From: Candidatus Flemingiibacterium sp.
GTDB lineage: Bacteria > Bacillota > Clostridia > Oscillospirales > CAG-272
NCBI GenBank assembly: GCA_045634345.1
Contig: JAZRAB010000097.1
Span: forward strand, 1 to 36,911
Reading direction: 5' to 3'
Length of the DNA: 36,911 bases
Of this stretch, positions 4,395 through 34,382 are shown in pieces. Numbering within the stretch: the stretch's first letter is position 1; the number at the start of each line of letters is the position of its first letter. The notes beneath the pieces are model-generated. The model did not search any database and was not told the origin of the DNA. It was given only the letters and a program-made list of their open reading frames with translations. The position numbers and the translations under genes were made by a program.

Positions 4395-5546
4395 TTATTT
4401 GTCTTCTTTATATGTAATATCCTTGATAAAGCATCTGCGGCGCTTGTGCTGTTCTTTTTCAAAGAATTTCCACTGTGCCTGTATCTTGGCGTTGGTTTCA
4501 AGCTGCGGCCCTGTCTCCGCGTACTTTATGCCGTTTTTGGTGGTGCTTTTTATGAAGTGGTCAAATATCATTGCGATAAGGGGCGTTCCCTGAAGCTCGG
4601 GCTTTATAGCGACCAGAAGCAGGTCTACGGTGTCGTTTTTTGACAGCGCCTTTAATACCGGTATCCAACCGAGAGGGAAGAGTCTTCCGCGGCATTTTCT
4701 GAGCGCGTCTGACAGTGATGGGACGGTAACACCGAAGGCAACCATATTGTTATCATTGTCCATGATAAAGCAGGCATAGTCGGGATTGACAAGCGGAATG
4801 AATTTCCCGGCGTATTTGTCTATCTGTCTATCGGTAAGTTTAACTACGCCGTAAAGCGGCGCATATGCTTCATTTAACAGCTCAAATACCTTTTTTACAT
4901 ATGGGCGGTAATCCGAACGCTTTTTCAAATCAGCTATATGATAAAGTCCCTGATGCTTGATTCGCTCGGCAAATCTCGCAATCATTTGGACTTCTTTTGA
5001 GTCGGGGGCAGGGACATTGATTCTGAACTCTATCCAGTCGGTATCTTTGGTATATCCGAGCTTTTCAAGATGATCCTTATAATACGGCGCATTGTAGTAT
5101 GTTATAAACATGCTCTTTCGGTCAAAGCCCTCAACGAGCATGCCCTCGCGGTCGAGATCGCAGAATCCGAGCGGTCCGTGAACCTCTTTACAGCCTTTTT
5201 CTCTTGCCCAAGTTTCAACCGCCTCAAAGAGTGCGGCGGATACTCGCTCGTCGTCTACAAAATCCACCTGCGAAAATCTCATTCGGTCGGTCTTCCAGGT
5301 CTTGTTTGATTTGTGGCTGAGTATAGCGCCTATTCTTCCGACGATTTTTCCGTTTTCGTATGCAAGAAAACATTTAGTCTCGCAGTATTCAAAAGCGGGA
5401 TTTTTCTTTTTATCCCAGTCATCTATATCATCTGAAAAAAATCCGGGTACATAATTCGGATTGTCTTTGTAAAGCTTGTTTGGAAAATCGACAAAAGCTT
5501 TTAGCTCACGCCTTGACTTCACTTCTTTTATGATTATATTTCCCAT
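4395..5546 (-). CDS. GNAT-fold N-acetyltransferase-like protein (YghO-like)
   Basis: N-terminal LKAFVDFPNKLY, GRIGAI, GPLGFCDLDREGMLVEGF, YNAPYY and LETN...Q, recalled as typical of this tandem-GNAT family. Substrate unknown. Confidence 0.65.
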   Translation of the reverse strand: MGNIIIKEVKSRRELKAFVDFPNKLYKDNPNYVPGFFSDDIDDWDKKKNPAFEYCETKCFLAYENGKIVGRIGAILSHKSNKTWKTDRMRFSQVDFVDDERVSAALFEAVETWAREKGCKEVHGPLGFCDLDREGMLVEGFDRKSMFITYYNAPYYKDHLEKLGYTKDTDWIEFRINVPAPDSKEVQMIARFAERIKHQGLYHIADLKKRSDYRPYVKKVFELLNEAYAPLYGVVKLTDRQIDKYAGKFIPLVNPDYACFIMDNDNNMVAFGVTVPSLSDALRKCRGRLFPLGWIPVLKALSKNDTVDLLLVAIKPELQGTPLIAMIFDHFIKSTTKNGIKYAETGPQLETNAKIQAQWKFFEKEQHKRRRCFIKDITYKEDK

Positions 5547-9395: not shown

Positions 9396-9424
9396 TTGAC
9401 ATAAGAGCTTACTTGTGGTAAAAT
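9396..9424 (+). promoter_or_regulatory. sigmaA promoter P1 of the peptide/surface operon
   Basis: TTGACA-17 nt-TAAAAT with extended TG. Confidence 0.6.
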
Positions 9425-9544: not shown

Positions 9545-9573
9545 TTGATTTTATCTGATTTGTGTGATATAAT
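9545..9573 (+). promoter_or_regulatory. sigmaA promoter P2 of the peptide/surface operon
   Basis: TTGATT-17 nt-TATAAT with extended TG. Confidence 0.6.
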
Positions 9574-9728: not shown

Positions 9729-9860
9729 ATGAAGAAGTTTGAAATGCCCGAGATCCAGGTTGAGGTTTTTGCCATTGCCGATGTTATCACTGTATCTGCA
9801 ACTGATACTGAACCTGTTAACCCCGGCAATAGCCAGCTTCCTTTCCTGCCCGGAGTTTAA
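9729..9860 (+). CDS. 43-aa RiPP-like precursor peptide MKKFEMPEIQVEVFAIADVITVSATDTEPVNPGNSQLPFLPGV (not in ORF track)
   Basis: Strong RBS GAAAGGAGG at 9710-9718. Leader F-x-x-P-x-I resembles the lasso YxxPxL RRE motif, followed by DVIT-V-S. The C-terminus is identical to that of the next gene, and a PqqD/RRE gene and a peptidase gene lie downstream. Confidence 0.85.
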   Translation: MKKFEMPEIQVEVFAIADVITVSATDTEPVNPGNSQLPFLPGV

Positions 9861-9883
9861 TCTTTGGTTATGGTATTTCAATT

Positions 9884-9966
9884 GTGACATTATTGATGTC
9901 ACGTTGAAAATCCCCCTGGGCTTTGACCCGGGGCATGTGTTCGAAAATTATAGCGAACATGTGCCC
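9884..9966 (+). other. Cluster of three stem-loops between the peptide gene and the SLH gene
   Basis: GTGACAT/ATGTCAC (9884-9902), CCCTGGG/CCCGGGG (about 9913-9933), and a 13-bp stem GGGCATGTGTTCG/CGAACATGTGCCC (9931-9966, two G-U pairs). Confidence 0.55.
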
Positions 9967-10104
9967 GAGGTCGAAGTTATATGTTTTTTGAACATTGTTA
10001 TGGACGCGGTGTTCTCGTTTAACACATATTGTTCATTTTGGTTTGCTAGTTAAAATAAAAAATATCATAGACAAAAAATTTATAACTAGGACGTGGAGGT
10101 TACT

Positions 10105-10992
10105 ATGAAAAAGAGAATTATAAGTTTACTTACTGCCATCGCGTTGACTGCATCTGCAGCATACGCAATTGCTGCGCAGGCGGATGAGCAGAAGGAATAT
10201 ACTGCGGACGCTCTTAACGAGTTGGGGCTTTTCCTTGGAACAGGAAACGGATATAATCTTGAGGGCAAGCTTGACCGTGCATCAAGTATTACTTTGATTA
10301 TAAGAATGCTCGGCAAGGTTGACGAGGCTCTTGAAAATGCAGATAGCTATGTAACTCCTTTTGTTGATGTCCCCGGATGGGCTGTTCCGTATGTCGGTTA
10401 TGCATATGAGAATAATATTACAAAGGGTACAGGTGCGGATACCTTCTCACCGGATGCAGAGGTTACCGAAGCAACCTTCCTTACACTCGCACTGCGTGCG
10501 CTCGGCTATAAGGATACCGGCGAAAATCCGCAGTTTGTTTGGAATAATCCGTATGATCTCGCCAAAGAGGTTGAACTTATCGCTACCGATAAAGCTGCTG
10601 CCGCTGCAGGAGATTCCTATTATCGCGCAGACGCTGTAGAGGTTTTCTGGAATGCACTCGGTGCAGAGCTTGCTGATAATTCCATGACACTTGCGGACAG
10701 ACTTATCGCGCAGGGTGTTTTCACTGCGGATGAATATGAACAGGCAAAGCTGATCAAGGAAGATGGTCCCGATGCGGATGATGCCGATACCACCGCAGAA
10801 CCCGAGGATACCACCGCAGAGCCAGAGGATACCACTGTAGAATCTGGCAATTCGAATAGCAATCAGCTTCCGTTTTTCCCGATGGAACCCGATGCCGAGC
10901 CGGAGGAGACCGATGAAGATAATACAGATGATTCGTCAAATGCTGGCAATGAAGGCAATAAGAATCAGCTTCCTTTTCTTCCGGGCGTTTGA
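10105..10992 (+). CDS. Secreted S-layer homology (SLH) domain protein with acidic Thr-rich tail ending in QLPFLPGV
   Basis: Signal peptide MKKRIISLLTAIALTASAAYA. SLH-like repeats (PFVDVPGWAVPYVGYAYENNITKG...FSPDAEVT; LFLGTGNG...LDRA; YRADA). GGAGGT RBS before 10105. Confidence 0.85.
   Translation: MKKRIISLLTAIALTASAAYAIAAQADEQKEYTADALNELGLFLGTGNGYNLEGKLDRASSITLIIRMLGKVDEALENADSYVTPFVDVPGWAVPYVGYAYENNITKGTGADTFSPDAEVTEATFLTLALRALGYKDTGENPQFVWNNPYDLAKEVELIATDKAAAAAGDSYYRADAVEVFWNALGAELADNSMTLADRLIAQGVFTADEYEQAKLIKEDGPDADDADTTAEPEDTTAEPEDTTVESGNSNSNQLPFFPMEPDAEPEETDEDNTDDSSNAGNEGNKNQLPFLPGV
10786..10842 (+). repeat. 21-bp in-frame tandem repeat (about 2.7 copies) encoding DTTAEPE
   Basis: GATACCACCGCAGAACCCGAG / GATACCACCGCAGAGCCAGAG / GATACCACTGTAGAA. 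Confidence 0.9.
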
Positions 10993-11067
10993 TTTGATCG
11001 GACATTTGTTTAAACCTTCTGCGAATATTTTCAGTATTTTAAATTTCATTTCCGTGTGGAGGATTGC

Positions 11068-11775
11068 ATGAGCCAATATTACCGTGTTGCTGACCTTATA
11101 GTCGAAATGGATTCATTTGGGCGTACGGTGAGTCAGGCTGAACCTTACCGTGTGGACGGTGAGTTTAAGCCGGATATATGTATTTCCGTTGATTGGCGTC
11201 CATTAAAAGAAAATCAGCCGCACCTTTCGGAGGAAGACTGCGAATACATTGAGACCGGTGCATCCTTTTATCATCAGCTTGTAAAGTTTGACGGTATGTT
11301 CCTTCATTCATCGGCGATTGTGATGGATGGAAAGGCGTATCTGTTTTCCGCACCGTGCGGTACCGGTAAATCTACACACACAGCACTGTGGCGGAAGGTT
11401 TTTGGCGAGGACAGAGTTCAGATGCTGAACGATGACAAGCCGGCGCTTCGTCTTGTTGACGGAAAATGGTATGCTTACGGAACCCCGTGGAGCGGAAAGT
11501 ATGATATAAGCTCTAATATTCGTGTTCCTCTTGGCGGAATCTGTATTTTAACTCGCGGGAAAGTTAATAAGATTGAGCCGTTTTGTGGAGCAAAAGCAGT
11601 GAGCGCACTGCTAGAACAAACAACAAGGCAAAAAAATGTTGCATTTATGCAAAAAATGCTCGATTTACTCGACAAACTTATAACAGATGTTCCGATATGG
11701 CGGCTTGAATGTAATATGGATCCTGAGGCGGCTATATTATCGCATCGTGTGATGTCCGGAGAAGCGGACAAATAA
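11068..11775 (+). CDS. HprK-related P-loop kinase/ATPase of the type found in RiPP clusters
   Basis: FLHSSAI catalytic His, Walker A APCGTGKST and MLNDD acidic pair, matching the HprK/PEPCK-like fold. GGAGGA RBS. Confidence 0.75.
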   Translation: MSQYYRVADLIVEMDSFGRTVSQAEPYRVDGEFKPDICISVDWRPLKENQPHLSEEDCEYIETGASFYHQLVKFDGMFLHSSAIVMDGKAYLFSAPCGTGKSTHTALWRKVFGEDRVQMLNDDKPALRLVDGKWYAYGTPWSGKYDISSNIRVPLGGICILTRGKVNKIEPFCGAKAVSALLEQTTRQKNVAFMQKMLDLLDKLITDVPIWRLECNMDPEAAILSHRVMSGEADK

Positions 11776-11804
11776 AGATTTTTAAGGAAAGGTATACATA
11801 AGCT

Positions 11805-12068
11805 ATGAAACTGAAATCCGGATTTATTCTCAGAGAGGTTGCGGGAACTTGCGTTGTTGTTCCTACCGGTGCTGAGCTTGATTTCAACGGAATGATTACT
11901 CTTAATGAGACCGGAAAGACGCTTTGGACTTGTCTTGAGAATGAAACAGACGAGAATGCGCTTACAGCGGCACTTCTTGCCGAATATGATACAGATGAGG
12001 CTACTGCGAGAGCAGGCGTTACGGCTTTTCTCGGTAAGTTGAGAAAACATGGCTTCATTGAAGAATAA
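11805..12068 (+). CDS. PqqD family peptide chaperone / RiPP recognition element (lasso B1-like)
   Basis: 87 aa with F-ILREVAG, ITLNETGKTLW, LLAEYD and FLGKLRKHGFIE, a typical PqqD pattern. Confidence 0.88.
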   Translation: MKLKSGFILREVAGTCVVVPTGAELDFNGMITLNETGKTLWTCLENETDENALTAALLAEYDTDEATARAGVTAFLGKLRKHGFIEE

Positions 12069-12519
12069 AGAGACTTCACTTGACTCATTAATGCCGATTA
12101 TTCGCGAGCAGCTTGCGCAGGGCGGTGATGTGACGTTTTCTCCCAGGGGAACAAGCATGTTGCCGATGCTTCGTCAGGGGAAAGATACGGTTACGCTGTC
12201 ACCCATAAACGGTCGCTTAAAAAAGTATGATCTTCCGCTTTATCGCAGAGATAACGGTCAATATGTGCTTCATCGTATAATAAGGGCAGGGGATACTTAT
12301 ACCTGCATTGGTGATAATCAGTTCCAACTTGAGCGCGGTATACGCCATGATCAGATGATAGGCGTTGTAAGTGCTTTCAACCGTGAGAAACAGGTGGTAA
12401 AGGTTACTGATTTGTCATATCGCCTTTATTGCCGTGTGTGGTGTCTCTCCAGACCGTTCCGTTACCTTTATTTTCGCGCTATTACTTTGAAAAGTCGGTA
12501 TTTGAAAAATAATGAATAG
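12049..12519 (+). CDS. S24/S26 family peptidase (signal peptidase I-like, no N-terminal membrane anchor)
   Basis: RGTSMLPML catalytic Ser box, YVLHRII (His general base) and GDNQ box. Overlaps the PqqD gene by 20 nt. Confidence 0.8.
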   Translation: MASLKNKETSLDSLMPIIREQLAQGGDVTFSPRGTSMLPMLRQGKDTVTLSPINGRLKKYDLPLYRRDNGQYVLHRIIRAGDTYTCIGDNQFQLERGIRHDQMIGVVSAFNREKQVVKVTDLSYRLYCRVWCLSRPFRYLYFRAITLKSRYLKNNE

Positions 12520-12610
12520 TATTATCAATAAATGTGCTTGCGCATGAGTGCTTGATATAAGTTTGCGCATAGCATTTTATACTATATATTAAATGGCAAA
12601 GGGGATTTTT

Positions 12611-13480
12611 ATGAATTATCAGTCAACTAATGAGATGAATGAAGTCGAAGCTGTAGAAGTCGATTTGTTTGATCTTATAAAATTGCTGTGGGAAAAACTG
12701 TGGATAGTCGTTTTGTCCATGATCGTTTGCGGTGCTATTGCATTTTCTGTATCAATTTTTGCAGTTACACCGATGTACAGTGCGTCCGCGATGCTGTACG
12801 TAAACAATAGTTCAGCGACCGTCAGCGGCATCCCGATTACAATAAATTCATCACAGCTTTCAGCAGCAAGGGCACTCCTCGATACATATGTGGTTATCTT
12901 AAAAACGAGAACCACTCTCGAAGCAGCGATAGAAAAGGCTGATCTACCATATTCCTACAATGAACTTCAGGGGATTGTTTCCGCTGAGTCTGTAAATGAT
13001 ACAGATATTTTCAGAATCACCGCAACCTGTGCTGACCCCGACGACGCAAAGCTTATAGTTGACACCCTTGTTGAGATTCTTCCCGACAGAATTTCTGATA
13101 TCGTTGACGGAAGCTCGGTGCGCATCGTTGACCGCGCCGTACGACCGGTAGGGCGTTCATCACCGTCATATACGAGATATGCAGTTATCGGTGTTATTAT
13201 CGGCGCTGTGTTAAGCTGCGCGATAATAATAATCGAAGACCTTACGAATACAAGCGTGCGAGATGAGGAATATCTCAAGATGAGATATAATATTCCGATC
13301 CTTGCCGTGATTCCCGAGGCATATGCTGTTTCAAAGAAAACGTACGGTTATAAATATGCTTACAGATCAAGGTATAAATACGGTTATCATGGCAGATATG
13401 GCTATAATCGAAATACGCATGGTAACATATATGAACAGAGTTATGAGCAGGCTCAGAACGGAATAGGTGGCGACAAATGA
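12611..13480 (+). CDS. Polysaccharide co-polymerase / chain-length regulator (Wzz/CpsC/YveK family)
   Basis: EVDLFDLIKLLW, TM1, TPMYSASAMLYV, SSP...TM2 and IPILAVIP, plus an extra Tyr-rich tail. Confidence 0.88.
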   Translation: MNYQSTNEMNEVEAVEVDLFDLIKLLWEKLWIVVLSMIVCGAIAFSVSIFAVTPMYSASAMLYVNNSSATVSGIPITINSSQLSAARALLDTYVVILKTRTTLEAAIEKADLPYSYNELQGIVSAESVNDTDIFRITATCADPDDAKLIVDTLVEILPDRISDIVDGSSVRIVDRAVRPVGRSSPSYTRYAVIGVIIGAVLSCAIIIIEDLTNTSVRDEEYLKMRYNIPILAVIPEAYAVSKKTYGYKYAYRSRYKYGYHGRYGYNRNTHGNIYEQSYEQAQNGIGGDK

Positions 13481-14406
13481 AATTAAATGATAAAAAGGCA
13501 AATGCCTATGAAAAAGCTGCCAAAGCTGAAAGCAAGAAGATATCAAAAGCAGATAAGAAAAAGAATGGTCCTTCTATTGAAGAAGAGGCGGCAACCATCG
13601 GAAAGAACCGCTCATTTGCAATGGCGGAAGCCCATAAGCGTCTGCGAACCAATATAATGTTCAGCTTTGCGGATGACAGTGAATGCCACATTATCGGTGT
13701 TACAAGTGCTATGGCACACGAAGGTAAAACTACCACGTCCATAAATCTTGCTTATGATTTAATGAAAGCAGGAAAAAAGACGCTGCTTATCGACGCGGAT
13801 ATGCGCTTGTCACGTATTCCAAAGCTTCTTGAGATCGAAGCGGCGCCAGGACTCAGTAATATGCTTGTCGGTAAAAACGATAATCAGAACGTAGTGCGCA
13901 CGATTACAGCTCATGATGGGCTTCAACTGATTACCTGCGGCGATATTCCGCCGAACCCGACGGAGCTTCTCTCGTCAAAGCGCTTTGAACTTTTGCTTAA
14001 TGCTCTTAAAGAAACATATGAATATATTGTAGTTGACCTTCCTCCCGTATCGGAGGTCTCGGATGCGCTTATTGCATCGAAGCTTGTGGACGGTATGATA
14101 GTTGTCGTGAGACAGGATTATGTTGATAAGCGCTTGCTTGACGATACCATTCATCAGCTTAATCTGAGTGGTGCTCGTATTATAGGTCTTGTAATGACAT
14201 GTGCGCAGTACAGGACAAAATACGGAAAGTATAAATACAAGAAGAGCGGCGGATATAAGTACGGCTACCGCGGCGGTTACGGTTATGCTAAACGCTCCGG
14301 CTACTATTCAAGGGGAGCCTATAATTATCATCATTCTCCCTACAGCTACGAATACGCCCAGCACCATCAGCATCATAAAAATCAGAACAGCTCTAAAGAA
14401 GAGTAA
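13477..14406 (+). CDS. BY-kinase, CpsD/CapB family tyrosine-protein kinase
   Basis: EAHKRLRTN, Walker A AHEGKTT, Walker A' LLIDAD, Walker B IVVDLPP and a C-terminal Tyr cluster. Confidence 0.92.
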   Translation: MKLNDKKANAYEKAAKAESKKISKADKKKNGPSIEEEAATIGKNRSFAMAEAHKRLRTNIMFSFADDSECHIIGVTSAMAHEGKTTTSINLAYDLMKAGKKTLLIDADMRLSRIPKLLEIEAAPGLSNMLVGKNDNQNVVRTITAHDGLQLITCGDIPPNPTELLSSKRFELLLNALKETYEYIVVDLPPVSEVSDALIASKLVDGMIVVVRQDYVDKRLLDDTIHQLNLSGARIIGLVMTCAQYRTKYGKYKYKKSGGYKYGYRGGYGYAKRSGYYSRGAYNYHHSPYSYEYAQHHQHHKNQNSSKEE

Positions 14407-14409
14407 TGT

Positions 14410-15195
14410 ATGAAAGAAGAGATTCTGCAACCCCCCTCGCGTTTTATTCCTCGTGTGGATTTTCATACACATATTTTACCGCAGGTCGATGACGGAAGCA
14501 GCTCGCTTGAAGAAAGTGTGCAAATGGTGCAGGCTCTTGCAAAATCAGGTGTCACGTGTATCGCTCTTACGCCGCATTTTTATCCGCAGTATGATGATCC
14601 CGAACGGTTTCTTGCAAGACGTGACCGCGCATTTGCGGATCTTCGCAGTGCGGTTATAGCCGACTCGGATATTTCACATGTTCATCTTATTCCGGGTGCG
14701 GAGGTAGAGTATTTCGACGGTATTGCTTGTATGAAAGACTATCCCGGGCTAAAACTCGGGAAGACCAAATGCTTGCTTGTCGAGATGCCTCACGGCGAAT
14801 GGACATCACATATGGTTGACGATATTCTTCAACTTAACAACAGTGGGATTTTCAGAGTGGTTATTGCTCATGTTGAGCGGTATCTCTTTTCGCAAAAAAG
14901 GGATGTTATACATACCCTCATTGACGATGGGGTCATAATGCAATCCAATACGGATTTCTTCATTGATCGCAGAACCTCCGGAAAAGCTGTGCGGATGTTA
15001 AAAAAAGGTTTGATACATATTCTTGGTACCGATTGTCACAGCATGACAATGCGTCCGCCGAGCATTCAGGAAGCGTGCGATATTATAATCAAGCGCGCAG
15101 GAGAAGACGTACTTCAGGGAATAATGTATAGAGCACACGATCTGCTTGTCGATGATATACAGATTGTTGCTGATAGCACTTCTGTACAGGTGTAG
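14410..15195 (+). CDS. PHP-family protein tyrosine phosphatase (CpsB/YwqE)
   Basis: DFHTHILP, DDG, TPH, AHVERY and GTDCH metal-binding motifs. Confidence 0.92.
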   Translation: MKEEILQPPSRFIPRVDFHTHILPQVDDGSSSLEESVQMVQALAKSGVTCIALTPHFYPQYDDPERFLARRDRAFADLRSAVIADSDISHVHLIPGAEVEYFDGIACMKDYPGLKLGKTKCLLVEMPHGEWTSHMVDDILQLNNSGIFRVVIAHVERYLFSQKRDVIHTLIDDGVIMQSNTDFFIDRRTSGKAVRMLKKGLIHILGTDCHSMTMRPPSIQEACDIIIKRAGEDVLQGIMYRAHDLLVDDIQIVADSTSVQV

Positions 15196-15199
15196 ATTA

Positions 15200-16120
15200 A
15201 TGAAGAGTAATTACAAGATCAAATATATAATCTTACTTTGTGTATGTCTTAACTGCATCGGTGTTTGTTTATATCTTAATTTTTTATACCAGACGAAGAT
15301 GCAGGATGACGGCGATTCACTTGAATCCCTGCGAGACTCAATAAAGCAGTACGAGTCAATCATGCTCGATGCAAACACCACGGCGCCTGCGCCCACTACA
15401 GAGGATGCTGGAGCGACTCCCGATACAGAGCCGGACCCGTTTATTACTGTCGATACGACCGAGGCAGATTCTGTAGAGACTACGGTAAGACCGCAGGTCT
15501 ATAAGCCGTCGGCTACCTTGAATTTCGATAAGCTTTGGGCGGTCAATCCCGAAATACACGCTTGGATAGACATTGAGGGGACAAAGATTGATTATCCTAT
15601 TCTGCAGAGTAAGAATAATGACAGAAAATATTTAAATACCGCATATGACGATTCTCCGTATATCGGAGGCGCGATATTTACTCAGGCGACATATAATAAT
15701 ACCGACTTCAATGATCCCGTTACACTCATTTACGGACATACGATGCGGTCGGGAACAATGTTCGGACAGCTTCAAAAAAGCTATTCGAGCGTACAGTCGT
15801 TTGAGGAAAACAGCGATATTGTGATATATCTGCCCGGTGAAGTCAGACATTATACTGTTTTCGCCGCAGTACCGTATGATGCGATGCACATACTTCATAC
15901 ATACGATTTTTCGAACACCTATTGGTACAACCGATTTTTCGATGATGTTGGACGAATCCGTGAAATAGGTGCGAATTTTGACAGAGAGGCTTTCCCCGAA
16001 GCGGGTGATCGAGTTATCATCCTTTCGGTTTGCTTAAATGAAGATACTGCCAGAAGATATCTTGTTATGGCAGCCTTCGAGGAGGATCTCGCAGACAATG
16101 CGAGGGATTCCAAAAACTAA
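15200..16120 (+). CDS. srtB: Class B sortase
   Basis: N-terminal TM, Thr/Pro/acidic linker, WIDIEGTKIDYPILQ, IYGHTM (His), ILSVC (Cys) and RYLV (Arg). Start moved to MKSNYK. Confidence 0.85.
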   Translation: MKSNYKIKYIILLCVCLNCIGVCLYLNFLYQTKMQDDGDSLESLRDSIKQYESIMLDANTTAPAPTTEDAGATPDTEPDPFITVDTTEADSVETTVRPQVYKPSATLNFDKLWAVNPEIHAWIDIEGTKIDYPILQSKNNDRKYLNTAYDDSPYIGGAIFTQATYNNTDFNDPVTLIYGHTMRSGTMFGQLQKSYSSVQSFEENSDIVIYLPGEVRHYTVFAAVPYDAMHILHTYDFSNTYWYNRFFDDVGRIREIGANFDREAFPEAGDRVIILSVCLNEDTARRYLVMAAFEEDLADNARDSKN

Positions 16121-16153
16121 ATTATATAATTTTTTACAAAGGAGATATTTGCT

Positions 16154-16855
16154 ATGAAGGCTTTACGCATTGCGACGATTTTACTTATTGTTGTGGCTTC
16201 GTTTGTTATGGCAGCCAATGCTGTGGAGTTTACCCCTAGTGTTGAAATTAAGGATGGACCTGAGATTATTGATCCTACTGATCCGGATGATCCTAAAGCA
16301 AGTGAGGACGAGTTAGAGATTACTCCGGTTGGACGCCTTGATGGTGAAGACCTTGATGAGGATATTAAAGACAATCTTACTGATGCAAAAAAAGACCTTG
16401 AGGAGAACGATTGGGAAGATATCCTTGATGATTTCGAGGACATATGGAATGAAGCTACCGACGGTGCCCCTGTTGAACATGCAATCGTCAGTGATATTTT
16501 CGATGTCCGCTATAAAGAAGATCCCACTGAGGACGGAACCGTTACAATTATGTTTGACATGAAAATGCAGGGGCTTGATTCGGATGATATTTTTGTTATC
16601 ATTGCTAAGCCAGAGGGCGGTGAATGGGCACCTATTGATTATACAATAAGCGAAGACGGAATTATAACCATTACCGTTGAAAACAAGTCAGTCTTTGCAA
16701 TCATTAAAGATAAGAGCGCAATGCCTGACATTGGCCCCGACGGTCCTGCTACAGGCGTTAGTCCGTATTTTGCTCCCGCAATTGTCGGTGCTGTATTCTT
16801 CGGTATTGCCGCTGTGGTTTGCGTGAATAAGATAGCTAAAAAAACAGAGAGATGA
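16154..16855 (+). CDS. Acidic cell-wall-anchored protein, probable substrate of the adjacent sortase
   Basis: Signal peptide MKALRIATILLIVVASFVMAANA. C-terminal GPATG followed by a hydrophobic segment and a KIAKKTER basic tail. Confidence 0.75.
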   Translation: MKALRIATILLIVVASFVMAANAVEFTPSVEIKDGPEIIDPTDPDDPKASEDELEITPVGRLDGEDLDEDIKDNLTDAKKDLEENDWEDILDDFEDIWNEATDGAPVEHAIVSDIFDVRYKEDPTEDGTVTIMFDMKMQGLDSDDIFVIIAKPEGGEWAPIDYTISEDGIITITVENKSVFAIIKDKSAMPDIGPDGPATGVSPYFAPAIVGAVFFGIAAVVCVNKIAKKTER

Positions 16856-16881
16856 AAATTCAGTTGAAAGGATGCTAGAAA

Positions 16882-17865
16882 ATGAAAAACAGAAAACAGC
16901 CAAAAGGTATATTTATTGTTGCTGTCTTACTTGTTTTGCTTGTGTCCTTGATCGTTGTCTTTTCGCTTGTCGAAAAGGCTATTAACCACATGAATGAGCT
17001 GCCCGATTCGCCTGATTATACCGATTCGGGCAACTCTCGCATTTACTATAATGATCACTGGTATACTCTCAATGAAAATATAGAGAGCATTCTGGTGCTC
17101 GGCATTGACTCGATGACAACACCGGACGGCTCGAAGGCTGATTCGCATCAGGCGGATTTCATTGCTTTGCTTGTCGTCGATAAATTGGATCACAGTTTCC
17201 GTGTTCTCTATATTAACCGCGATACTATGACTGAGATATCTCAGATTAATGATATCGGCGAGCAGTATGGCACATTCACCGCACAGCTTGCCTTGGCGCA
17301 TGCATACGGAAGTGACGGAAAGATGCGATGTCGCAATACCGTTTCTGCAATCGAGCATTTACTCTATGGTACTAACATTGACCATTATTTCTCCGTCACA
17401 ATGGATGCAGTCCCGATAATCAACGACAGTCTTGGCGGAGTGACAGTGACGCTTGAGGAAGATCTTCCTGCACTTGGCGAAGAGTTTTTGAAAGGCGCAG
17501 AGATCACCCTTAAAGGTGCAGACGCGCTTTCGTTTGTCCGCTGGAGAAGTGACGAGGCGGAGCAGAGTAATCTCGGCCGTATGGAGCGTCAGCGTCAGTA
17601 TATTGCGGCGTTCTTTGATAAATATACGACGGCGGATCTTGAAGATTCCTTTGAAACAATAACAGATATCGACGAATATATTGTTTCCGACTGCACTTTT
17701 AACCAACTTACGCTTCTTTTGGAGCGTCTGCAGGGATATTCACATAAAGGTACATTCTCTCTTGAGGGCGAAGCTGTCAAGGGAAGTGAGTATATTGAAT
17801 ATTACATTGATGAAAATGCGGTACAGGCTACAGTTGTAGATCTTTTTTATAAAATTGAGGAGTGA
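16882..17865 (+). CDS. LytR-CpsA-Psr (LCP) family glycopolymer transferase
   Basis: N-terminal TM, ILVLGID, ADFIAL, INRDT, LAHAYG, GGVTV, FVRWR and RMERQRQY. Confidence 0.9.
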   Translation: MKNRKQPKGIFIVAVLLVLLVSLIVVFSLVEKAINHMNELPDSPDYTDSGNSRIYYNDHWYTLNENIESILVLGIDSMTTPDGSKADSHQADFIALLVVDKLDHSFRVLYINRDTMTEISQINDIGEQYGTFTAQLALAHAYGSDGKMRCRNTVSAIEHLLYGTNIDHYFSVTMDAVPIINDSLGGVTVTLEEDLPALGEEFLKGAEITLKGADALSFVRWRSDEAEQSNLGRMERQRQYIAAFFDKYTTADLEDSFETITDIDEYIVSDCTFNQLTLLLERLQGYSHKGTFSLEGEAVKGSEYIEYYIDENAVQATVVDLFYKIEE

Positions 17866-17874
17866 CAACCTACA

Positions 17875-19917
17875 ATGAACAACAAATCTAATGGTATAAT
17901 GGAGGGCAATGATGAGGCAACCTCACGCAGACAGCCACATCTCCCACTCCAGATATATGATTTAATATTGCTGATTGCAGCAGTTGTTCTGTTGCTTGGA
18001 TTTAATCCGAGCAGTGCGGAAAAGTTCGGCATACTCCCTTTGGCGATTCATTTATTGCTATCTTATATATGTATTTTGTCATTCAGATCATTCGGCGGCG
18101 TTTATAGGCAGATTTGGCGATATAGCTCTCCGTTTTCGTATATAAGATTAATTACTTCCGATCTTTTCGCAGGAATTGTATATTACATACTTGTTCAGAT
18201 CCTTCCGATCGAAAAAATTGCGTTTGTACGTGCTTTTTCGCTTGTTGCATTAAATCTTTTACTTGCTGTAACAATACGTCTTTTGTATCAATTTTTATAT
18301 GAGCGTGCAAACAGACCCGGTAAGAGTTCATCTTTTTGGCGCTCTACTATGAAGCTTATGACCGGTCTTTCGTTTGACAATGAAAATGCCGGCAAAGCTT
18401 CTGAAGGTGCTTCAACAAATAACAAAATAAGAATCGCAATTGTTGGCGCAGGACAAGTTGGAGCTATGCTTGCTGAAGAGCTTATCAAGAATCCGAGAGC
18501 AGCTTACATACCGTGTTGCTTTATTGACATAGACCGTTCCAAGATAGGACGTGAAATTTACGGTTTGCCGGTTTTTGGTGGAGATAATGAGGTGGCACAA
18601 GCCCTTTCAGCACTTTCTGTGCAGGAAATCGTATTTGCTCTGCCTTGCGTTGAGCCTGAACATATAAAAAATCTTTATGAATACTATAAGAATACCGGAT
18701 GCAAGATCAAGGTGTACGACTATCCGGTAATGCAGACCGCCGATAAGAGCAAACGCCAAATGCGTGAATTTGATATTGAGGAATTGCTCTTCCGTAAGCC
18801 GATTGTGGTTAACGATGACCGAACGAGGGCTTATTATAAGGATAAAGTGGTCTTGATTACGGGCGGCGGCGGTTCGATAGGCAGTGAGCTTTGTCGACAG
18901 ATTGCGAGAATGGAACCAAGAGCGCTGATTATTCTTGACGTTTATGAAAACGGCGCATATGATATCCAACAGGAGCTACGAATTGCCTATGGCAACAAGC
19001 TCAAGGTCAGTGTAGAGATTCTTTCCGTATGTGATAAGTCCGGAATGGAGAAGGTTTTTAAGGCATACAACCCACACATTATTCTGCATGCGGCGGCGCA
19101 TAAACATGTTCCTCTGATGGAGCATAACTGCTGTGAGGCGGTTAAAAATAACGTGTTTGGTACGCTCAATGTGGTTGAGTTGGCTGAAAAGTACAATGTC
19201 GAGCGTTTTATCATGATTTCCACTGACAAGGCAGTTAATCCGACCAATGTAATGGGTGCTACCAAGCGTGTCTGCGAGATGATAATTCAAAGCCACAGCC
19301 GTACTGCGAAAACTACTACATTCAGTGCGACAAGATTCGGAAATGTCCTCGGAAGTGCCGCATCTGTCGTGCCGCTCTTTAAGAGACAGATTATGAACGG
19401 CGGTCCCGTTACAATTACGGACAAGCGCATAATCCGATATTTCATGACTATTCCCGAAGCAAGTCAGTTGGTGCTTCAGTCAGGAGCTATGGCGAAAAAC
19501 GGAGAGCTCTTCGTTCTTGATATGGGCAAATCCATACGTATTCTTGAGCTTGCAGAAACTATGATACGTCTCAGCGGCTATGAGCCATACCGCGATATTG
19601 ATATCGTGGAGACAGGTCTTCGCCCGGGCGAGAAGCTTTATGAGGAGCTGCTTATACGTACCGGTGAGCTTGATAAAACAGAAAACAGCTTGATATTCAT
19701 TGAGCGCGATGCCCCACTGTCAGACAAAGAATTGAATGAACGTCTTGACATTCTTCGCGCCGCGCTTGAAACTATTGATGATGCCGTAGTTAAGGATGCA
19801 CTAATGCGTGTCGTTCCGACATACCATGATCCTAGTTCTGTTAATTCGGATGCTGCCGCGCAGGAGCGAATTGAGAGATTGTCAAGCGCCTCTGAAGGGG
19901 TAACGGTAACTGTATAA
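17875..19917 (+). CDS. CapD/PglF-like membrane-bound UDP-GlcNAc 4,6-dehydratase (polysaccharide biosynthesis protein)
   Basis: Four N-terminal TMs, IVGAG, ITGGGGSIGSEL, HAAAHKHVP, ISTDKAVNPTNVMGATKR, RFGNV and RPGEKLYEEL. Confidence 0.92.
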   Translation: MNNKSNGIMEGNDEATSRRQPHLPLQIYDLILLIAAVVLLLGFNPSSAEKFGILPLAIHLLLSYICILSFRSFGGVYRQIWRYSSPFSYIRLITSDLFAGIVYYILVQILPIEKIAFVRAFSLVALNLLLAVTIRLLYQFLYERANRPGKSSSFWRSTMKLMTGLSFDNENAGKASEGASTNNKIRIAIVGAGQVGAMLAEELIKNPRAAYIPCCFIDIDRSKIGREIYGLPVFGGDNEVAQALSALSVQEIVFALPCVEPEHIKNLYEYYKNTGCKIKVYDYPVMQTADKSKRQMREFDIEELLFRKPIVVNDDRTRAYYKDKVVLITGGGGSIGSELCRQIARMEPRALIILDVYENGAYDIQQELRIAYGNKLKVSVEILSVCDKSGMEKVFKAYNPHIILHAAAHKHVPLMEHNCCEAVKNNVFGTLNVVELAEKYNVERFIMISTDKAVNPTNVMGATKRVCEMIIQSHSRTAKTTTFSATRFGNVLGSAASVVPLFKRQIMNGGPVTITDKRIIRYFMTIPEASQLVLQSGAMAKNGELFVLDMGKSIRILELAETMIRLSGYEPYRDIDIVETGLRPGEKLYEELLIRTGELDKTENSLIFIERDAPLSDKELNERLDILRAALETIDDAVVKDALMRVVPTYHDPSSVNSDAAAQERIERLSSASEGVTVTV

Positions 19918-19922
19918 ATATT

Positions 19923-19959
19923 ATAAAGAAAGAGCCGAGTATATCGGCTCTTTCTTTAT
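19923..19959. terminator. Bidirectional intrinsic terminator between convergent capD-like and wzt
   Basis: 16-bp perfect inverted repeat ATAAAGAAAGAGCCGA / TCGGCTCTTTCTTTAT. Confidence 0.85.
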
Positions 19960-21227
19960 GTCTTATCGAATATAGTATCCGGTAATTTGATATGCCCCCA
20001 ACGATGGGGAAACCAATTTGTTTTTATGTTGTCCTCAATTCTGAAAAAGCAGACGGGCCATGCGGTGTCATAGTCCTCAAATCCACCGTATTCATTTGTC
20101 CCGTATATGACAAATACGCAGTTATATCTTCCGCGTGTCAATTCGTCAGTGGGGAAATGCAGATTAAATGCTTTTTCTTCTCCCACAGACATTGATTCCA
20201 GCATCTCACAAAATGATGTACCGACAACGGAATCATCCTGAAATCTTAACTCAAGCCGGAAATTTAATTGCGTTATTGGAACGGTGGCTTTAACTGTAAG
20301 TCGGAGATGAATCTTTTCACCGGAGTGGTATACAGGCTGTTCCTTATCAAGCACCTCAAGGCGTGTCATTTGGGCTTTTGGATTGCTTGGAAAGTGTTTG
20401 ATTTTCGTATTAGTGAGATCTACATCGAGGTCGTCCGATGAAGTATTAAGCCCCATATATATTGCAATTCCGTCTTCAACATCACCGTCGAACACTATCT
20501 TACCGTCATCGAGAACTACACATCGGTCACATAATTGGCGTATGGTGTTCATGTTGTGGGAAACATAAAGCACGGTGCGTCCTTCCTCTTTTGCGACATT
20601 GCGCATCTTGTTGAGGCATTTTTCCTGAAATGCCATATCTCCAACAGCGAGGACCTCGTCCATTATCATGATCTCACTGTCAAGATGAGCCGCAACCGAA
20701 AACGCAAGCTTTACATACATGCCGGATGAATAACGCTTGACGGGGGTATCAATGAAGTCACGGATCTCGGAAAACTCTATAATATCTTCCATTTTTTTAT
20801 CTATTTCCGCTTTTGTCATGCCGAGAATAGCGCCGTTCATGTAGATGTTTTCGCGTCCTGTCATCTCGGGGCTGAAGCCGGTGCCAACTTCGAGCATGGA
20901 AGCTATTCTGCCGTATATATCTACAGTACCATCGCTCGGTGCGGTAATGCGAGAGAGTATTTTCAGCATTGTGGATTTGCCTGCACCGTTACCGCCGATT
21001 ATTCCGATTGCTTCTCCCTTGTAAATCGTCAGATCAATGCCGTTAAGTGCCATGAATGTGTCACCGCGAAGACGTACATTCTGACCGATTTTTGTGTTAG
21101 GATCTTCTTTTTTGCGTACCTTTGCCCACCAACTTTGCAGGTCGGCAGTCAGCGTGCCGCCCCCGATTTGACCGAGACGGTACTGCTTTTTTAGTCCTTG
21201 TATTTTTACTGCGATATCTTCGCTCAT
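19956..21227 (-). CDS. wzt: Polysaccharide ABC transporter ATP-binding subunit (Wzt) with C-terminal Wzt_C-like domain
   Basis: GGNGAGKST, YSSGMYVKLAF, IMDEVLAVGD and VSH motifs, plus a C-terminal extension of about 160 aa. Confidence 0.9.
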   Translation of the reverse strand: MSEDIAVKIQGLKKQYRLGQIGGGTLTADLQSWWAKVRKKEDPNTKIGQNVRLRGDTFMALNGIDLTIYKGEAIGIIGGNGAGKSTMLKILSRITAPSDGTVDIYGRIASMLEVGTGFSPEMTGRENIYMNGAILGMTKAEIDKKMEDIIEFSEIRDFIDTPVKRYSSGMYVKLAFSVAAHLDSEIMIMDEVLAVGDMAFQEKCLNKMRNVAKEEGRTVLYVSHNMNTIRQLCDRCVVLDDGKIVFDGDVEDGIAIYMGLNTSSDDLDVDLTNTKIKHFPSNPKAQMTRLEVLDKEQPVYHSGEKIHLRLTVKATVPITQLNFRLELRFQDDSVVGTSFCEMLESMSVGEEKAFNLHFPTDELTRGRYNCVFVIYGTNEYGGFEDYDTAWPVCFFRIEDNIKTNWFPHRWGHIKLPDTIFDKT

Positions 21228-21260
21228 AAATTGCACCTCGTTTTTTTGAAGATGAACTTA

Positions 21261-22115
21261 TTATACGGTGTCCATAAAGGTTTTTTCGACCTTGCTGAAT
21301 ATGACCACACCAAGTGTCACTACCGCTGTCATTACGACAATGGAAATTATCCAATACAACGGATTTACGGCACCAACGCCGAGGAATATCCATCTGAAGG
21401 TCTCAATGGCACATGTTACGGGATTAAGCATGATAATATTGTATAACTTGCTGTTTGCGAGAGTTGATATCGGGTATACGACCGGAGTTATGTACATCCA
21501 TAGCTGTACGCCGAATGTAACCAGCATGGCTAAATCTCGGTATTTTGTTGTTAAGCTTGATACGATAATGCCAAATCCGAGTCCTAAGAACCCGAGGTAT
21601 AGAATAATAAGCGGTAAGAGGATGATGTACAGATAGTTGGGGGTGATTGCACCGGTTATCAGATAGTAGACCCAAAACAGCAAAAACATGGTAAACTGTA
21701 CGAGAAAGTTGATTGCTGAGGAGAGTACCGTGGAAATGGGGCTTGCAAGCCTTGGGAAGTAAACTTTGCCGAAAACCCGTGCATTATTTGTAAAGGTGGC
21801 AGAGGTTTGATTAAGGCAGGTTGAGAAAAAAGTCCAAACCGCAGTGCCACCCATATAGAAAAGAATTTGGGGGATTCCGTCTGTTGAAATATTTGCGATA
21901 TTGCCAAATACAAGCGTATAAATAAGCGTGGTCATAAGAGGCTGCAGAATTATCCAGGCAGGTCCTAAAATCGTTTGCTTGTAGATTAGTATAAATCTGC
22001 GCTTGGTGAAGAGCCATATAAGATCACGGTATTGCCACAGCTCTTTTAAATTAATATCAAACCATCCGTTTTTAGCTTTCAAATGGGTATGGTATTTAGG
22101 CAGCGTCTGTTTCAT
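21261..22115 (-). CDS. wzm: Polysaccharide ABC transporter permease (Wzm)
   Basis: ELWQYRDL, YKQTILGPAW, KVYFPR, KYRD, MYITPVVYP and LNP motifs. Start at 22115 fits the AGGAG spacing better than 22124. Confidence 0.9.
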   Translation of the reverse strand: MKQTLPKYHTHLKAKNGWFDINLKELWQYRDLIWLFTKRRFILIYKQTILGPAWIILQPLMTTLIYTLVFGNIANISTDGIPQILFYMGGTAVWTFFSTCLNQTSATFTNNARVFGKVYFPRLASPISTVLSSAINFLVQFTMFLLFWVYYLITGAITPNYLYIILLPLIILYLGFLGLGFGIIVSSLTTKYRDLAMLVTFGVQLWMYITPVVYPISTLANSKLYNIIMLNPVTCAIETFRWIFLGVGAVNPLYWIISIVVMTAVVTLGVVIFSKVEKTFMDTV

Positions 22116-22158
22116 GTTTTTCATCTCCTACAAGTTGATAAACTGACAGATTTATAGG

Positions 22159-23897: not shown

Positions 23898-25442
23898 GTG
23901 AAATATTTGCGCATACTGCAGCGTTTTTTGTTTAACGGAATCATAATGACAGTTACTTCTTTACTGCTTCGAACTCTCGGCGTGGCATTCAATGCTTTTA
24001 TTTCACGCGAGCTTGGCGCTGACGGAATGGGATTGTTTACGCTTATTATGAGTGTTTACGGACTTGCGGTAACGCTTGCTGCTTCAGGTGTTAATCTTGC
24101 TGCCACACGTTTGTGCGCCGAGGCGCTGGGAAATGGAAATGAGGCGGCAGTAAGCGGTGCCTTGAGGCGCTGTCTTACATATGCACTTACTTGCGGTATT
24201 ATTGCGTGCGTAATACTTTATTTGGGGGCAGAGTATGTATCGCAAGCGTGGCTTGGGGACGTGCGTTGTATGCCGTCTTTACGTTTGCTTGCATTGAGTC
24301 TTCCTTTTATTGCTGCTTCTAATGTGCTTCACGGATACTTTACTGCAGTGCGCAAGGTGTCAAAAAGTGCGGCAACACAGATATTTGAACAGCTTTTCAA
24401 GATGCTTGTTACCGTATGGGCACTTTTGTATATAGTTCCCGACGGAATAGAGTATGCCTGCATGGCACTTGTCGGAGGAGGTGCACTTGCCGAGAGTGCT
24501 TCATTTGCGATGGCACTGCTTCTTTATCTTATTGACAGACGTAAAATGAAGCATACAGTTCTTGAACGGGAAAATGGGAAAAAACTGACACGTGAGCTTT
24601 TCAAGATAACTATTCCCGTTGCAGCTGCCGCATATGTGCGCTCGGGACTGTCAACGCTTGAGCATATACTAATTCCGCGCGGACTTCGGAAGAATCCGGT
24701 GACTGCGGATACTGCACTTGCTACATACGGTGTGTTGTGCGGCATGGTAATGCCTATCATAATGTTCCCGACAGCACTGCTGTATTCATTTACGGGTTTG
24801 CTTGTTCCCGAATTTGCCGAGGCGCAGGCGAGAAAAAACACGGTGCATATACGTTACATGATATCGCGCTCTCTTGGACTTACACTTATATTTTCGATCG
24901 GTTGTGCGGCGATTATGTCTATGCTCTCACACGAGCTTGGAATGTTGATTTATGACAGCTACGATGCGGGAGAATTTATCCGCGTAATGGCACCGCTTAT
25001 ACCTTTAATGTATCTTGATCATGCGGTTGATGCAATATTAAAAGGTCTCGGTGAACAGCTTTACTGCATGAAGGTCAATATTCTTGACTCTGCGATGTGT
25101 ACCTTGCTCGTGTACATTCTTTGTCCGCGAGTGGGGATATACGGTTATATTATAACTATATACATTGCTGAAGCGGCTAATACGGCACTCAGCTTGGCGC
25201 GACTTATAAAGGTAAGCGGATTTTCTGTTCGAGTCGTTGATCGCTTTATAAAGCCGATGGTGTGTGCGACTGGAGCGGTTGCCCTGCTTCGGTTATTTGG
25301 AATTTCCGAGCTTGGTGTCACTTGGATATCGCTTTTGGGCACGTCAGTACTTACGGTAAGTACATATTTTATATTGCTTATCGGAACGGGGAGTGTATCA
25401 GTACAAGATATTAAGTGGGCGTCGTGTGTTATCAAGCGGTAA
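23898..25442 (+). CDS. SpoVB-like MOP/MurJ superfamily flippase (polysaccharide biosynthesis protein)
   Basis: About 14 TMs with ISRELGADGMGLF, QIFEQ, IPRGL and ILKGLGEQ, resembling stage V sporulation protein B. Confidence 0.8.
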   Translation: MKYLRILQRFLFNGIIMTVTSLLLRTLGVAFNAFISRELGADGMGLFTLIMSVYGLAVTLAASGVNLAATRLCAEALGNGNEAAVSGALRRCLTYALTCGIIACVILYLGAEYVSQAWLGDVRCMPSLRLLALSLPFIAASNVLHGYFTAVRKVSKSAATQIFEQLFKMLVTVWALLYIVPDGIEYACMALVGGGALAESASFAMALLLYLIDRRKMKHTVLERENGKKLTRELFKITIPVAAAAYVRSGLSTLEHILIPRGLRKNPVTADTALATYGVLCGMVMPIIMFPTALLYSFTGLLVPEFAEAQARKNTVHIRYMISRSLGLTLIFSIGCAAIMSMLSHELGMLIYDSYDAGEFIRVMAPLIPLMYLDHAVDAILKGLGEQLYCMKVNILDSAMCTLLVYILCPRVGIYGYIITIYIAEAANTALSLARLIKVSGFSVRVVDRFIKPMVCATGAVALLRLFGISELGVTWISLLGTSVLTVSTYFILLIGTGSVSVQDIKWASCVIKR

Positions 25443-34371: not shown

Positions 34372-34382
34372 ATCGCGCCTCC

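Follow-up and report, generated by a model that had tools for sequence, protein, structure and literature searches.

With good confidence, the first five genes of a twelve-gene run in a contig of Candidatus Flemingiibacterium sp. (JAZRAB010000097.1, contig C97 of its genome) can be assigned to a Clostridial variant of LPP (linear polyphosphorylated peptides), a module for peptides made by ribosomes and modified after translation (RiPPs), standing at the head of an operon for capsule regulation and cell-wall attachment. The contig was analysed over its full length of 36,911 nucleotides, referred to below as the window, and belongs to a genome of 1.76 Mb in 214 contigs that is 90% complete; the nearest public relatives of the host genome are uncultured Oscillospiraceae-like gut bacteria, including 'Candidatus Flemingiibacterium' and Faecousia. 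The run, at positions 9729-19917, consists of twelve open reading frames (ORFs), all on the + strand in the ORF list with translations, and each of the co-directional genes named in the initial annotation was found in its place. That annotation had also presented the genes as a candidate undescribed system, a description that no longer holds, since the core of the module is the LPP family, published in May 2026 (PMC13381572). What is new at the window locus is a minimal Clostridial LPP-type module fused to a capsule tyrosine-kinase and attachment operon, together with a co-varying, tethered copy of the peptide tail.

The LPP family was described from the lppA-K-B-S-D-N cluster of Paenibacillus alginolyticus DSM5050 and was found inside capsule gene regions of Bacilli (Popov et al., Nat Commun 2026;17:6633, PMC13381572). 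According to the main text of that report, the conserved set comprises LppS, a SipW-like signal peptidase of archaeal type, LppB, a discrete RiPP recognition element (RRE), LppK, an HprK-like kinase, LppN, a nucleoside triphosphate (NTP) transferase, and LppD, an MsbA-like pump, while the precursors carry a YxxP leader and yield a linear, leader-cleaved product polyphosphorylated on Ser. Deletions in B. subtilis demonstrated that LppK places up to four phosphates on core Ser3 and that LppS (WP_029196374.1; S29/H68/D93) cuts the leader after T-1 in an LppB-dependent manner, and LppN was inactive. The authors regard the biological role as unknown and the final product as unidentified, and offer a part in biofilm formation as speculation (PMC13381572).

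The enzymes of the window module correspond to this set. The kinase gene (11056-11775, +; LppK-like) encodes a GTGKST P-loop, with GxGKSTH, NDDK and GK invariant. By sequence it gives weak matches only, to ScmC (E=5.6e-5) and HprK_rel_A (E=1.3e-3), and its profile reaches HprK 1ko7 at E=0.099; its fold model (predicted local distance difference test score, pLDDT, 95) is matched by Foldseek to ATP-dependent phosphoenolpyruvate carboxykinase and HprK/P with E=1.3e-6 to 2.6e-5, so that an HprK-like kinase activity is predicted from sequence and model. The next gene (11805-12068, +; LppB-like) encodes a discrete PqqD-type RRE (Pfam PF05402, E=8.9e-18), and at its 3' end the RRE gene shares 20 nt with the peptidase gene. 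The peptidase (12049-12519, +; 156 aa; LppS-like) appears to be a leader peptidase of the archaeal, SipW-like signal peptidase I fold, carrying GTSMLP, HR and GDN motifs. It has no Pfam or NCBIfam match of its own, and the Atlas clusters that hold it are named S24/S26 peptidase; among 43 relatives, 39 match TIGR02228 (archaeal-type signal peptidase I) and 26 the SipW model, and G34, S36, M37, P39, H75, R76, G88, D89 and E95 are invariant. Against the PDB, the profile of these relatives gives matches to bacterial signal peptidase I with E=0.05-0.4 that cover the catalytic Ser and the Lys/His position, and the AlphaFold model (pLDDT 88.5) retrieves LexA, SpsB, lambda cI and SipA in Foldseek (E from 1.2e-3, probability 1.0). 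The model contains an N-terminal helix at residues 11-23 and amphipathic C-terminal helices at 122-155, without an N-terminal membrane helix. A SipW-like peptidase with a Ser/His/Asp catalytic set (S36, H75 and D89) is thereby predicted, and its Ser-to-His spacing of 39 residues equals that of S29 and H68 in LppS (PMC13381572). A predicted complex of PqqD, peptidase and peptide scored 0.38 against 0.35 for a control with the peptidase replaced and was not used as evidence. All module genes are single copies in the genome.

Relatives of the peptidase are abundant. A metagenome protein set clustered at 90% identity contains 3,248 at E<=0.001 among 3,255 candidates, and the 120 relatives listed all lack a Pfam domain and carry no informative name. 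A relative is encoded in 162 stretches of the GTDB species genomes, of which the best 80 were examined for neighbours. A PqqD gene adjoins the peptidase in 72 of the 80 loci, an HprK-like gene occurs in 49, NTP_transf_5 (PF14907) in 14, and an ABC_membrane and ABC_tran exporter lies directly 3' of the peptidase in 32. The peptidase is present in 59 of 120 further genomes sampled evenly from the family to which the window genome belongs. For the 47 of these without CpsD nearby, 40 loci were fetched and weaker hits left out; two of the 52 fetched loci, L088 and L095, gave no tblastn match to the window peptidase and were counted through the genome-sample search only. The family sample scored for neighbours comprised 50 loci, of which 36 have PqqD adjacent, 33 an HprK-like gene, 11 NTP_transf_5 and two an ABC pump. 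In one neighbour scan, ORFs were called by a crude longest-ORF rule, which lost the window's own PqqD gene to an antisense ORF. By these counts, the LPP family reaches into uncultured gut Clostridia at large scale: within one family, 59 of 120 sampled genomes have the peptidase, and the metagenome set contains over 3,200 clusters of it at 90% identity. In a group of Ruminococcus loci (L034, 7728-10483; L036-L046, L052 and L054), the PqqD-peptidase pair stands directly behind groES-groEL; alongside lie a PMT_2-type glycosyltransferase in convergent orientation and a glycerol-3-phosphate dehydrogenase, and neither an HprK-like gene nor a precursor was detected in these loci. Cultivable carriers among the relatives include Eubacterium segne BX4 (L051, order cpsBCD-K-B-S-pump), Lachnoclostridium sp. 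MSJ-17 (L038) and Ruminococcus sp. JE7B6 (L034).

The precursor gene (9729-9860, +; LppA-like), preceded at 8 nt by a Shine-Dalgarno sequence AGGAGG, encodes 43 amino acids with the leader MKKFEMPEIQVEVFAIADVITVS and a variable core ending in QLPFLPGV. A hidden Markov model of the leader recovered homologues in 22 of 81 loci and in 8 of 50 further loci, with lengths of 31-61 aa. In the alignment, they have in common the leader MKKFxxPExEIxKFxxEDVITxS and a conserved T-x-S at the leader/core junction, followed by short, acidic and hypervariable cores. The putative RRE-binding motif of the window leader is FEMPEI; F or Y occupies its first position in 20 of the 22 aligned precursors and P is nearly invariant. 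Judged by sequence, F would be a conservative variant of Y/W, which brings the motif within the RRE-binding pattern [Y/W]xxPx[L/V/I/F/A].

A leader peptide, an RRE, a serine peptidase and an HprK-like kinase without a cyclase together suggest a linear, phosphorylated peptide, as the initial annotation had supposed, and experiments on the homologous LPP system agree (PMC13381572). The PqqD-type RRE would bind the FxxPxI part of the precursor leader. The HprK-like kinase would add phosphates, probably several, to the Ser conserved in the DVIT-x-S junction, and the soluble Ser/His peptidase, translationally coupled to the RRE, would take the RRE-bound precursor and remove the leader at this junction. 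The product would be a linear acidic phosphopeptide of approximately 20-22 residues ending in QLPFLPGV; with no macrolactam cyclase acting, it would not be a lasso peptide. At the window locus and among its relatives, the analysis shows the gene content, the folds and the invariance of the catalytic residues, together with synteny across the family and a conserved leader; Ser polyphosphorylation, RRE-dependent cleavage by a signal peptidase I (SpI)-like enzyme and linearity of the product are carried over from the Paenibacillus homologue (PMC13381572). By this analogy, Thr(-1) and Ser(+2) are the preferred sites of cleavage and phosphorylation at the window locus, although the exact positions are inferred. 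Reading T-x-S by the -3/-1 rule of signal peptidases, with a cut after Ser, was dropped because LppS cuts after T-1 and Ser3 is the phospho-acceptor. Among the relatives, L024 carries two precursor genes (3333-3452 and 4786-4905) whose cores differ at two residues. The precursor of L065 (5640-8518) has a core rich in Cys; behind it come a Cys-rich protein of 451 aa, the kinase and a lipoprotein-like protein, and the locus may represent a hybrid involving a different modification enzyme.

The association of the module with capsule genes recurs in relatives, as the initial annotation had predicted, and agrees with the capsule loci of LPP (PMC13381572). The full twelve-gene order is also present in L005 and L006, and up to the contig limits in L004, L007, L009, L011 and L084, at 31-84% protein identity. 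In 18 of the 80 loci, cpsC, cpsD or cpsB lies within approximately 10 kb in several arrangements. The tyrosine kinase TIGR01007 occurs in 75 of the 120 family-sample genomes, namely in 52 of 59 with the peptidase against 23 of 61 without it, a comparison not corrected for relatedness. The peptidase lies within 10 kb of this kinase in 12 of the 59 genomes, from 11 genera, where chance would give approximately 0.96; the nominal P of approximately 5e-10 is overstated, since related genomes are not independent. The arrangement varies by lineage: the module may precede cpsC, follow cpsD or diverge from cpsB, or the order is cpsC-cpsD-NTP_transf_5-peptidase. Such differences between lineages argue for a repeated association of the module with cps genes. 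The window locus shows that a minimal four-gene form of LPP can be fused to a capsule tyrosine-kinase operon, and a link of the module to cpsBCD reappears independently across many genera.

The second gene of the run (10093-10992, +) encodes a secreted SLH-domain protein (Pfam SLH, E=2.4e-8) with an acidic T/E/P linker, and it carries the C-terminal motif of the peptide twice, internally as NQLPFFP and terminally as NQLPFLPGV. Across the 30 peptide-bearing loci, seven have at the extreme C-terminus of an adjacent secreted protein a tail copy matching the cognate precursor. The shared motif is QLPFLPGV in the window, NQLPLG in L005 (1149-2306) and L006 (7604-8758), AGEED(V/I)F in L011 (2849-3784), GEE(E/D)F in L017 (191-916 and 923-1327), DAGEEQP(L/I) in L050 (1713-2339) and GGAG(N/T)ED in L059 (1910-2437, - strand). 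The carrier is SLH-anchored in the window, L005, L006, L011 and L017 and has a lipoprotein-like signal in L050, L059 and the second protein of L017, in each case with a long acidic T/E/P linker. In a permutation over 93 loci, of which 24 bear a peptide, the cognate tail ranked first in five cases and was tied solely with a sister locus in two; none of six extra family-sample peptides has a tail copy. Matches seen by eye in L070 and L084 failed the permutation test and were left uncounted. A tail copy on a surface protein is absent from the main text of the LPP report (PMC13381572). Other loci encode a conserved lipoprotein-like family of approximately 220 aa, without a Pfam match, with an acidic stretch towards the N-terminus and a C-terminus of conserved IDIGEIM-like sequence, which does not copy the peptide tail. 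Its members lie between precursor and kinase in L015 (8367-9047), L018 (1129-1893) and L032 (8363-9049) and behind PqqD in L013 (9321-9998), and the family also occurs in L016.

Since the cpsBCD linkage is repeated and the tail copy on the adjacent surface-anchored protein co-varies with the peptide, the product is inferred to act on the cell envelope. The tail copy offers a handle on function and points to an extracellular recognition event; the favoured, if speculative, interpretation is that the free tail and the tethered one are recognised by a common extracellular partner. A more specific version, to which only a small chance is given, pairs the released phosphopeptide with the motif copies tethered at the surface, which sit on a protein with an SLH or lipid anchor and a long acidic linker, frequently two to a protein; a single partner particular to the lineage, for example the CpsC ectodomain or another envelope protein, would recognise both at the cell surface. 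The free peptide would then compete with or mimic the tethered tail and tune capsule or biofilm through the CpsCD/CpsB phosphorelay, and if this were true, LPPs would gain a concrete function as a strain-specific envelope code. The role in capsule or S-layer glycan assembly and the glycan-linked peptide proposed in the initial annotation found no support, either here or in the main text of the LPP report (PMC13381572), and the operon is without the NTP transferase thought to add sugars.

The window locus shares with LPP a [Y/F]xxP leader with a variable core, an HprK-like kinase, an RRE beside a SipW-like Ser/His/Asp peptidase, the lack of a cyclase and a location in a capsule locus. It differs in its host, a Clostridial gut lineage (Oscillospiraceae-like) rather than Bacilli, in having FxxP for YxxP, in its precursors of only 31-61 aa, in the position of the module ahead of a cpsC-D-B-srtB-LCP-capD run, and in the adjacent surface protein that copies the core C-terminus. 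The terms SLH, S-layer, lipoprotein, sortase and Clostridi- do not occur in the main text of PMC13381572, whose supplements may list Clostridial members.

Several observations weigh against the assignment to LPP and its tie to the capsule. The window peptidase and kinase fall below every curated family cut-off, so that their membership comes from folds, relatives and context, and the match of the window genes to LppS, LppK and LppB in kind, order and catalytic residues was drawn from the published description. The leader model finds no precursor in 59 of 81 and 42 of 50 loci. The leader spacing at the window locus is P-x6-F-x6-T-x-S, whereas published LPP leaders have P-x9-F-x-[T/A] with a conserved Ser three residues later. 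Regular expressions for the published pattern (YxxPxVLxHQxIxFETxxS; Px9Fx[T/A]) matched nothing in the loci, and inspection by hand of nine loci at greater distance, L072, L076 and L077 of the class Bacilli among them, gave no precursor and hence no intermediate joining the two leader types; the difference is treated as a trait of a subfamily rather than as family-defining. The exporter (LppD) and the NTP transferase (LppN) are absent from the window operon. The only NTP_transf_5 homologue of the genome lies at a contig start (contig C62, 283-1479), with 23% identity to the L072 protein (E=2e-23), and the ABC exporters elsewhere in the genome are generic. Finally, the link to cps genes is not obligatory, as none lies near the module in 62 of the 80 loci or in 47 of the 59 peptidase genomes of the family sample, and horizontal transfer of LPP genes is reported to be frequent (PMC13381572).

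These last points feed an alternative in which an LPP-type cluster merely landed beside cps genes and its peptide is an exported signal or competition factor unrelated to capsule or cell wall, a reading that is possible but falls short of probable. Capsule loci are hot spots of gene exchange, most of the loci lack a cps gene within approximately 10 kb, 32 of 80 carry an ABC exporter of their own, the cores are hypervariable in the manner of pheromones and bacteriocins, and the LPP report deduces many gains and losses of LPP genes, typical of conflict systems (PMC13381572). A chance neighbourhood, however, sits poorly with adjacency to cpsBCD in 11 other genera, upstream, downstream, divergent and convergent, at approximately 12 times the chance expectation. 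The window and L051/L058 moreover pack the module into the cpsBCD gene run with gaps of at most 73 nt, the cps-linked loci of the same family are mostly without an exporter (2 of 50), and the peptide tail is copied on the adjacent surface protein. That copy might itself be a functionless by-product of local duplication or gene conversion, given that the two genes lie approximately 1.1 kb apart on the same strand and share a stretch of just 6-13 residues. This appears unlikely, because identical tail residues are encoded with synonymous differences at 2 of 5 to 4 of 8 codons in five loci (window, L005, L006, L011 and L050), the flanks do not align, the motif varies between lineages while matching within each, the carrier switches from SLH to lipoprotein-like, and the cognate match led the permutation described above. 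Judging from the codons, selection on the peptide sequence explains the tail match better than recent DNA copying.

A further alternative takes the module for a standard lasso cluster of the paeninodin type, with the genes for its cyclase (C) and B2 protease either located elsewhere or missed in the assembly. Paeninodin-type clusters, and pseudomycoidin, likewise combine an RRE (B1) and a leader motif with an HprK-like kinase acting on the precursor, and share NTP_transf_5 and an ABC pump with many relatives of the window locus (PMC7533575, PMC13381572, as far as these texts describe them). The window leader has a lasso-like [Y/W/F]xxPx[L/V/I] motif, its PqqD protein weakly matches lasso B1 models (E=3e-7 to 4.5e-7, under the cut-offs), and the incompleteness of the genome leaves room for a missing gene. 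Nevertheless, the lasso reading was rejected and is regarded as very improbable. The only Asn-synthetase-like protein in the 90%-complete genome is a genuine housekeeping AsnB beside unrelated genes, scoring 527 bits with TIGR01536 and 226 bits with the lasso-cyclase model (cut-off 525), and the genome has no match to the transglutaminase-like B2 protease PF13471; the search for a conventional cyclase elsewhere, suggested in the initial annotation, thus turned up AsnB alone. None of the 130 related loci scored (80 and 50) has an AsnB-like gene, the position of B2 is held by a serine peptidase suited to leader removal, and the cores of relatives, down to 8-12 residues (L062, L006), are too short for a threaded lasso or are without a ring acceptor. 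The published family has a linear product, and lasso enzymes accompany only about one-third of its SpI genes (PMC13381572).

Other known systems resemble parts of the LPP-type module. Bacillus subtilis SipW and the archaeal/ER-type signal peptidase I (TIGR02228, NF046067) have the same fold and a Ser/His catalytic pair, whereas the window peptidase is without an N-terminal anchor, has an RRE as its partner and would act on a cytoplasmic leader rather than a Sec signal peptide. ScmC (TIGR04249) and the HPr-rel-A system (TIGR04352, with the PqqD-family chaperone TIGR04353) likewise pair an HprK-related P-loop protein with a PqqD-family chaperone. Membership in these was rejected, as the respective scores of 22.6, 17.9 and 26.9 (E=5.6e-5, 1.3e-3 and 6.9e-6) lie far under the curated cut-offs of 125, 200 and 35 and no radical SAM partner is present. 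In the portions of the RRE-Finder paper (PMC7470986) and the 2025 RRE paper (PMC12710340) that were covered, the terms HPr, S24, S26, signal peptidase, LexA and kinase do not occur.

The layout of the run is compact. Intergenic distances range from -50 to +73 nt, the sole exception being 232 nt 3' of the peptide gene, so the earlier description of genes mostly overlapping or nearly touching is accurate. The two promoters proposed in front correspond to the two best promoter-like sites of the region, both within the 555-nt spacer upstream of the operon: TTGACA-17-TAAAAT with a TG extension (9396-9424, +; 11 of 12 matches) and TTGATT-17-TATAAT with a TG extension (9545-9573, +; 10 of 12), which are matches to the consensus only, and the total of 34 such sites is no excess over the 27.8 +/- 5.8 found in shuffles. 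The 232-nt spacer behind the peptide gene (9861-10092, +) contains a perfect 13-bp stem at approximately 9931-9966 and folds with a minimum free energy of -72 kcal/mol (z=-4.71; 0 of 200 shuffles equally stable), and it may serve as an attenuator or mRNA stabiliser. At the far end, where a strong terminator had been noted, a terminator-like hairpin with a 16-bp stem (19923-19959) lies 3' of capD, between the convergent capD and ABC-ATPase genes. From this layout, the whole twelve-gene run may be a single transcript. The window ORFs scanned include no lasso cyclase, radical SAM enzyme, LanM/YcaO or MsbA-type exporter, in line with the earlier remark that such enzymes and a peptide exporter are missing from the window.

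The remaining seven genes form the capsule and attachment part. They encode a CpsC/Wzz-type chain-length determinant and tyrosine kinase partner (12593-13480, +; TIGR01006, E=4.8e-33), a CpsD-type tyrosine autokinase with a Tyr-rich C-terminal tail (13477-14406, +; TIGR01007, 172.8 bits, cut-off 108) and a CpsB-type PHP phosphotyrosine phosphatase (14410-15195, +; PF19567, E=1.4e-41). These are followed by a class B sortase (15146-16120, +; TIGR03064, E=1.6e-35, 122.6 bits, under the curated cut-off of 153.75), which probably begins downstream of the TTG given in the ORF list, and by an acidic GPATG surface protein (16154-16855, +) without a Pfam or NCBIfam match but with a signal peptide, a GPATG sorting signal, a transmembrane stretch and a KKTER tail, which is a likely sortase substrate. 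A LytR-CpsA-Psr (LCP) glycopolymer-to-peptidoglycan transferase (16882-17865, +) and a membrane-anchored CapD/PseB-like UDP-sugar 4,6-dehydratase (17875-19917, +; PF02719, E=8e-117) complete the run. CpsC, CpsD, CpsB and LCP are all present, and no second locus of this kind turned up in the genome. The 5' region of streptococcal and clostridial cps loci likewise contains a Wzz-like CpsC, a CpsD autokinase, a PHP-type CpsB, an LCP ligase and a CapD-type dehydratase; by comparison, the window operon is without a glycosyltransferase, flippase and polymerase and gains sortase B with its GPATG substrate, as well as the RiPP module and the SLH protein in front.

Further features were recorded around these loci. 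Very large ORFs stand directly upstream of the precursor in L008, L011, L013, L023, L035, L050, L057, L062, L066 and L085, the last of them (13459-19998, -) exceeding 2,100 residues and extending past the fetched region. In the window, a Wzm/Wzt-type glycan ATP-binding cassette exporter (19956-22124, -) is convergent with the operon and faces capD, and a Polysacc_synt/MatE flippase-like protein (23898-25442, +) is encoded among the flanking envelope genes. An 801-aa surface protein with a transglutaminase core (PF01841) and an Ig-like domain is encoded at 27570-29975 (-), and a pair consisting of an AlgX-like SGNH protein and an MBOAT O-acyltransferase lies near the operon at 33292-35792 (-).

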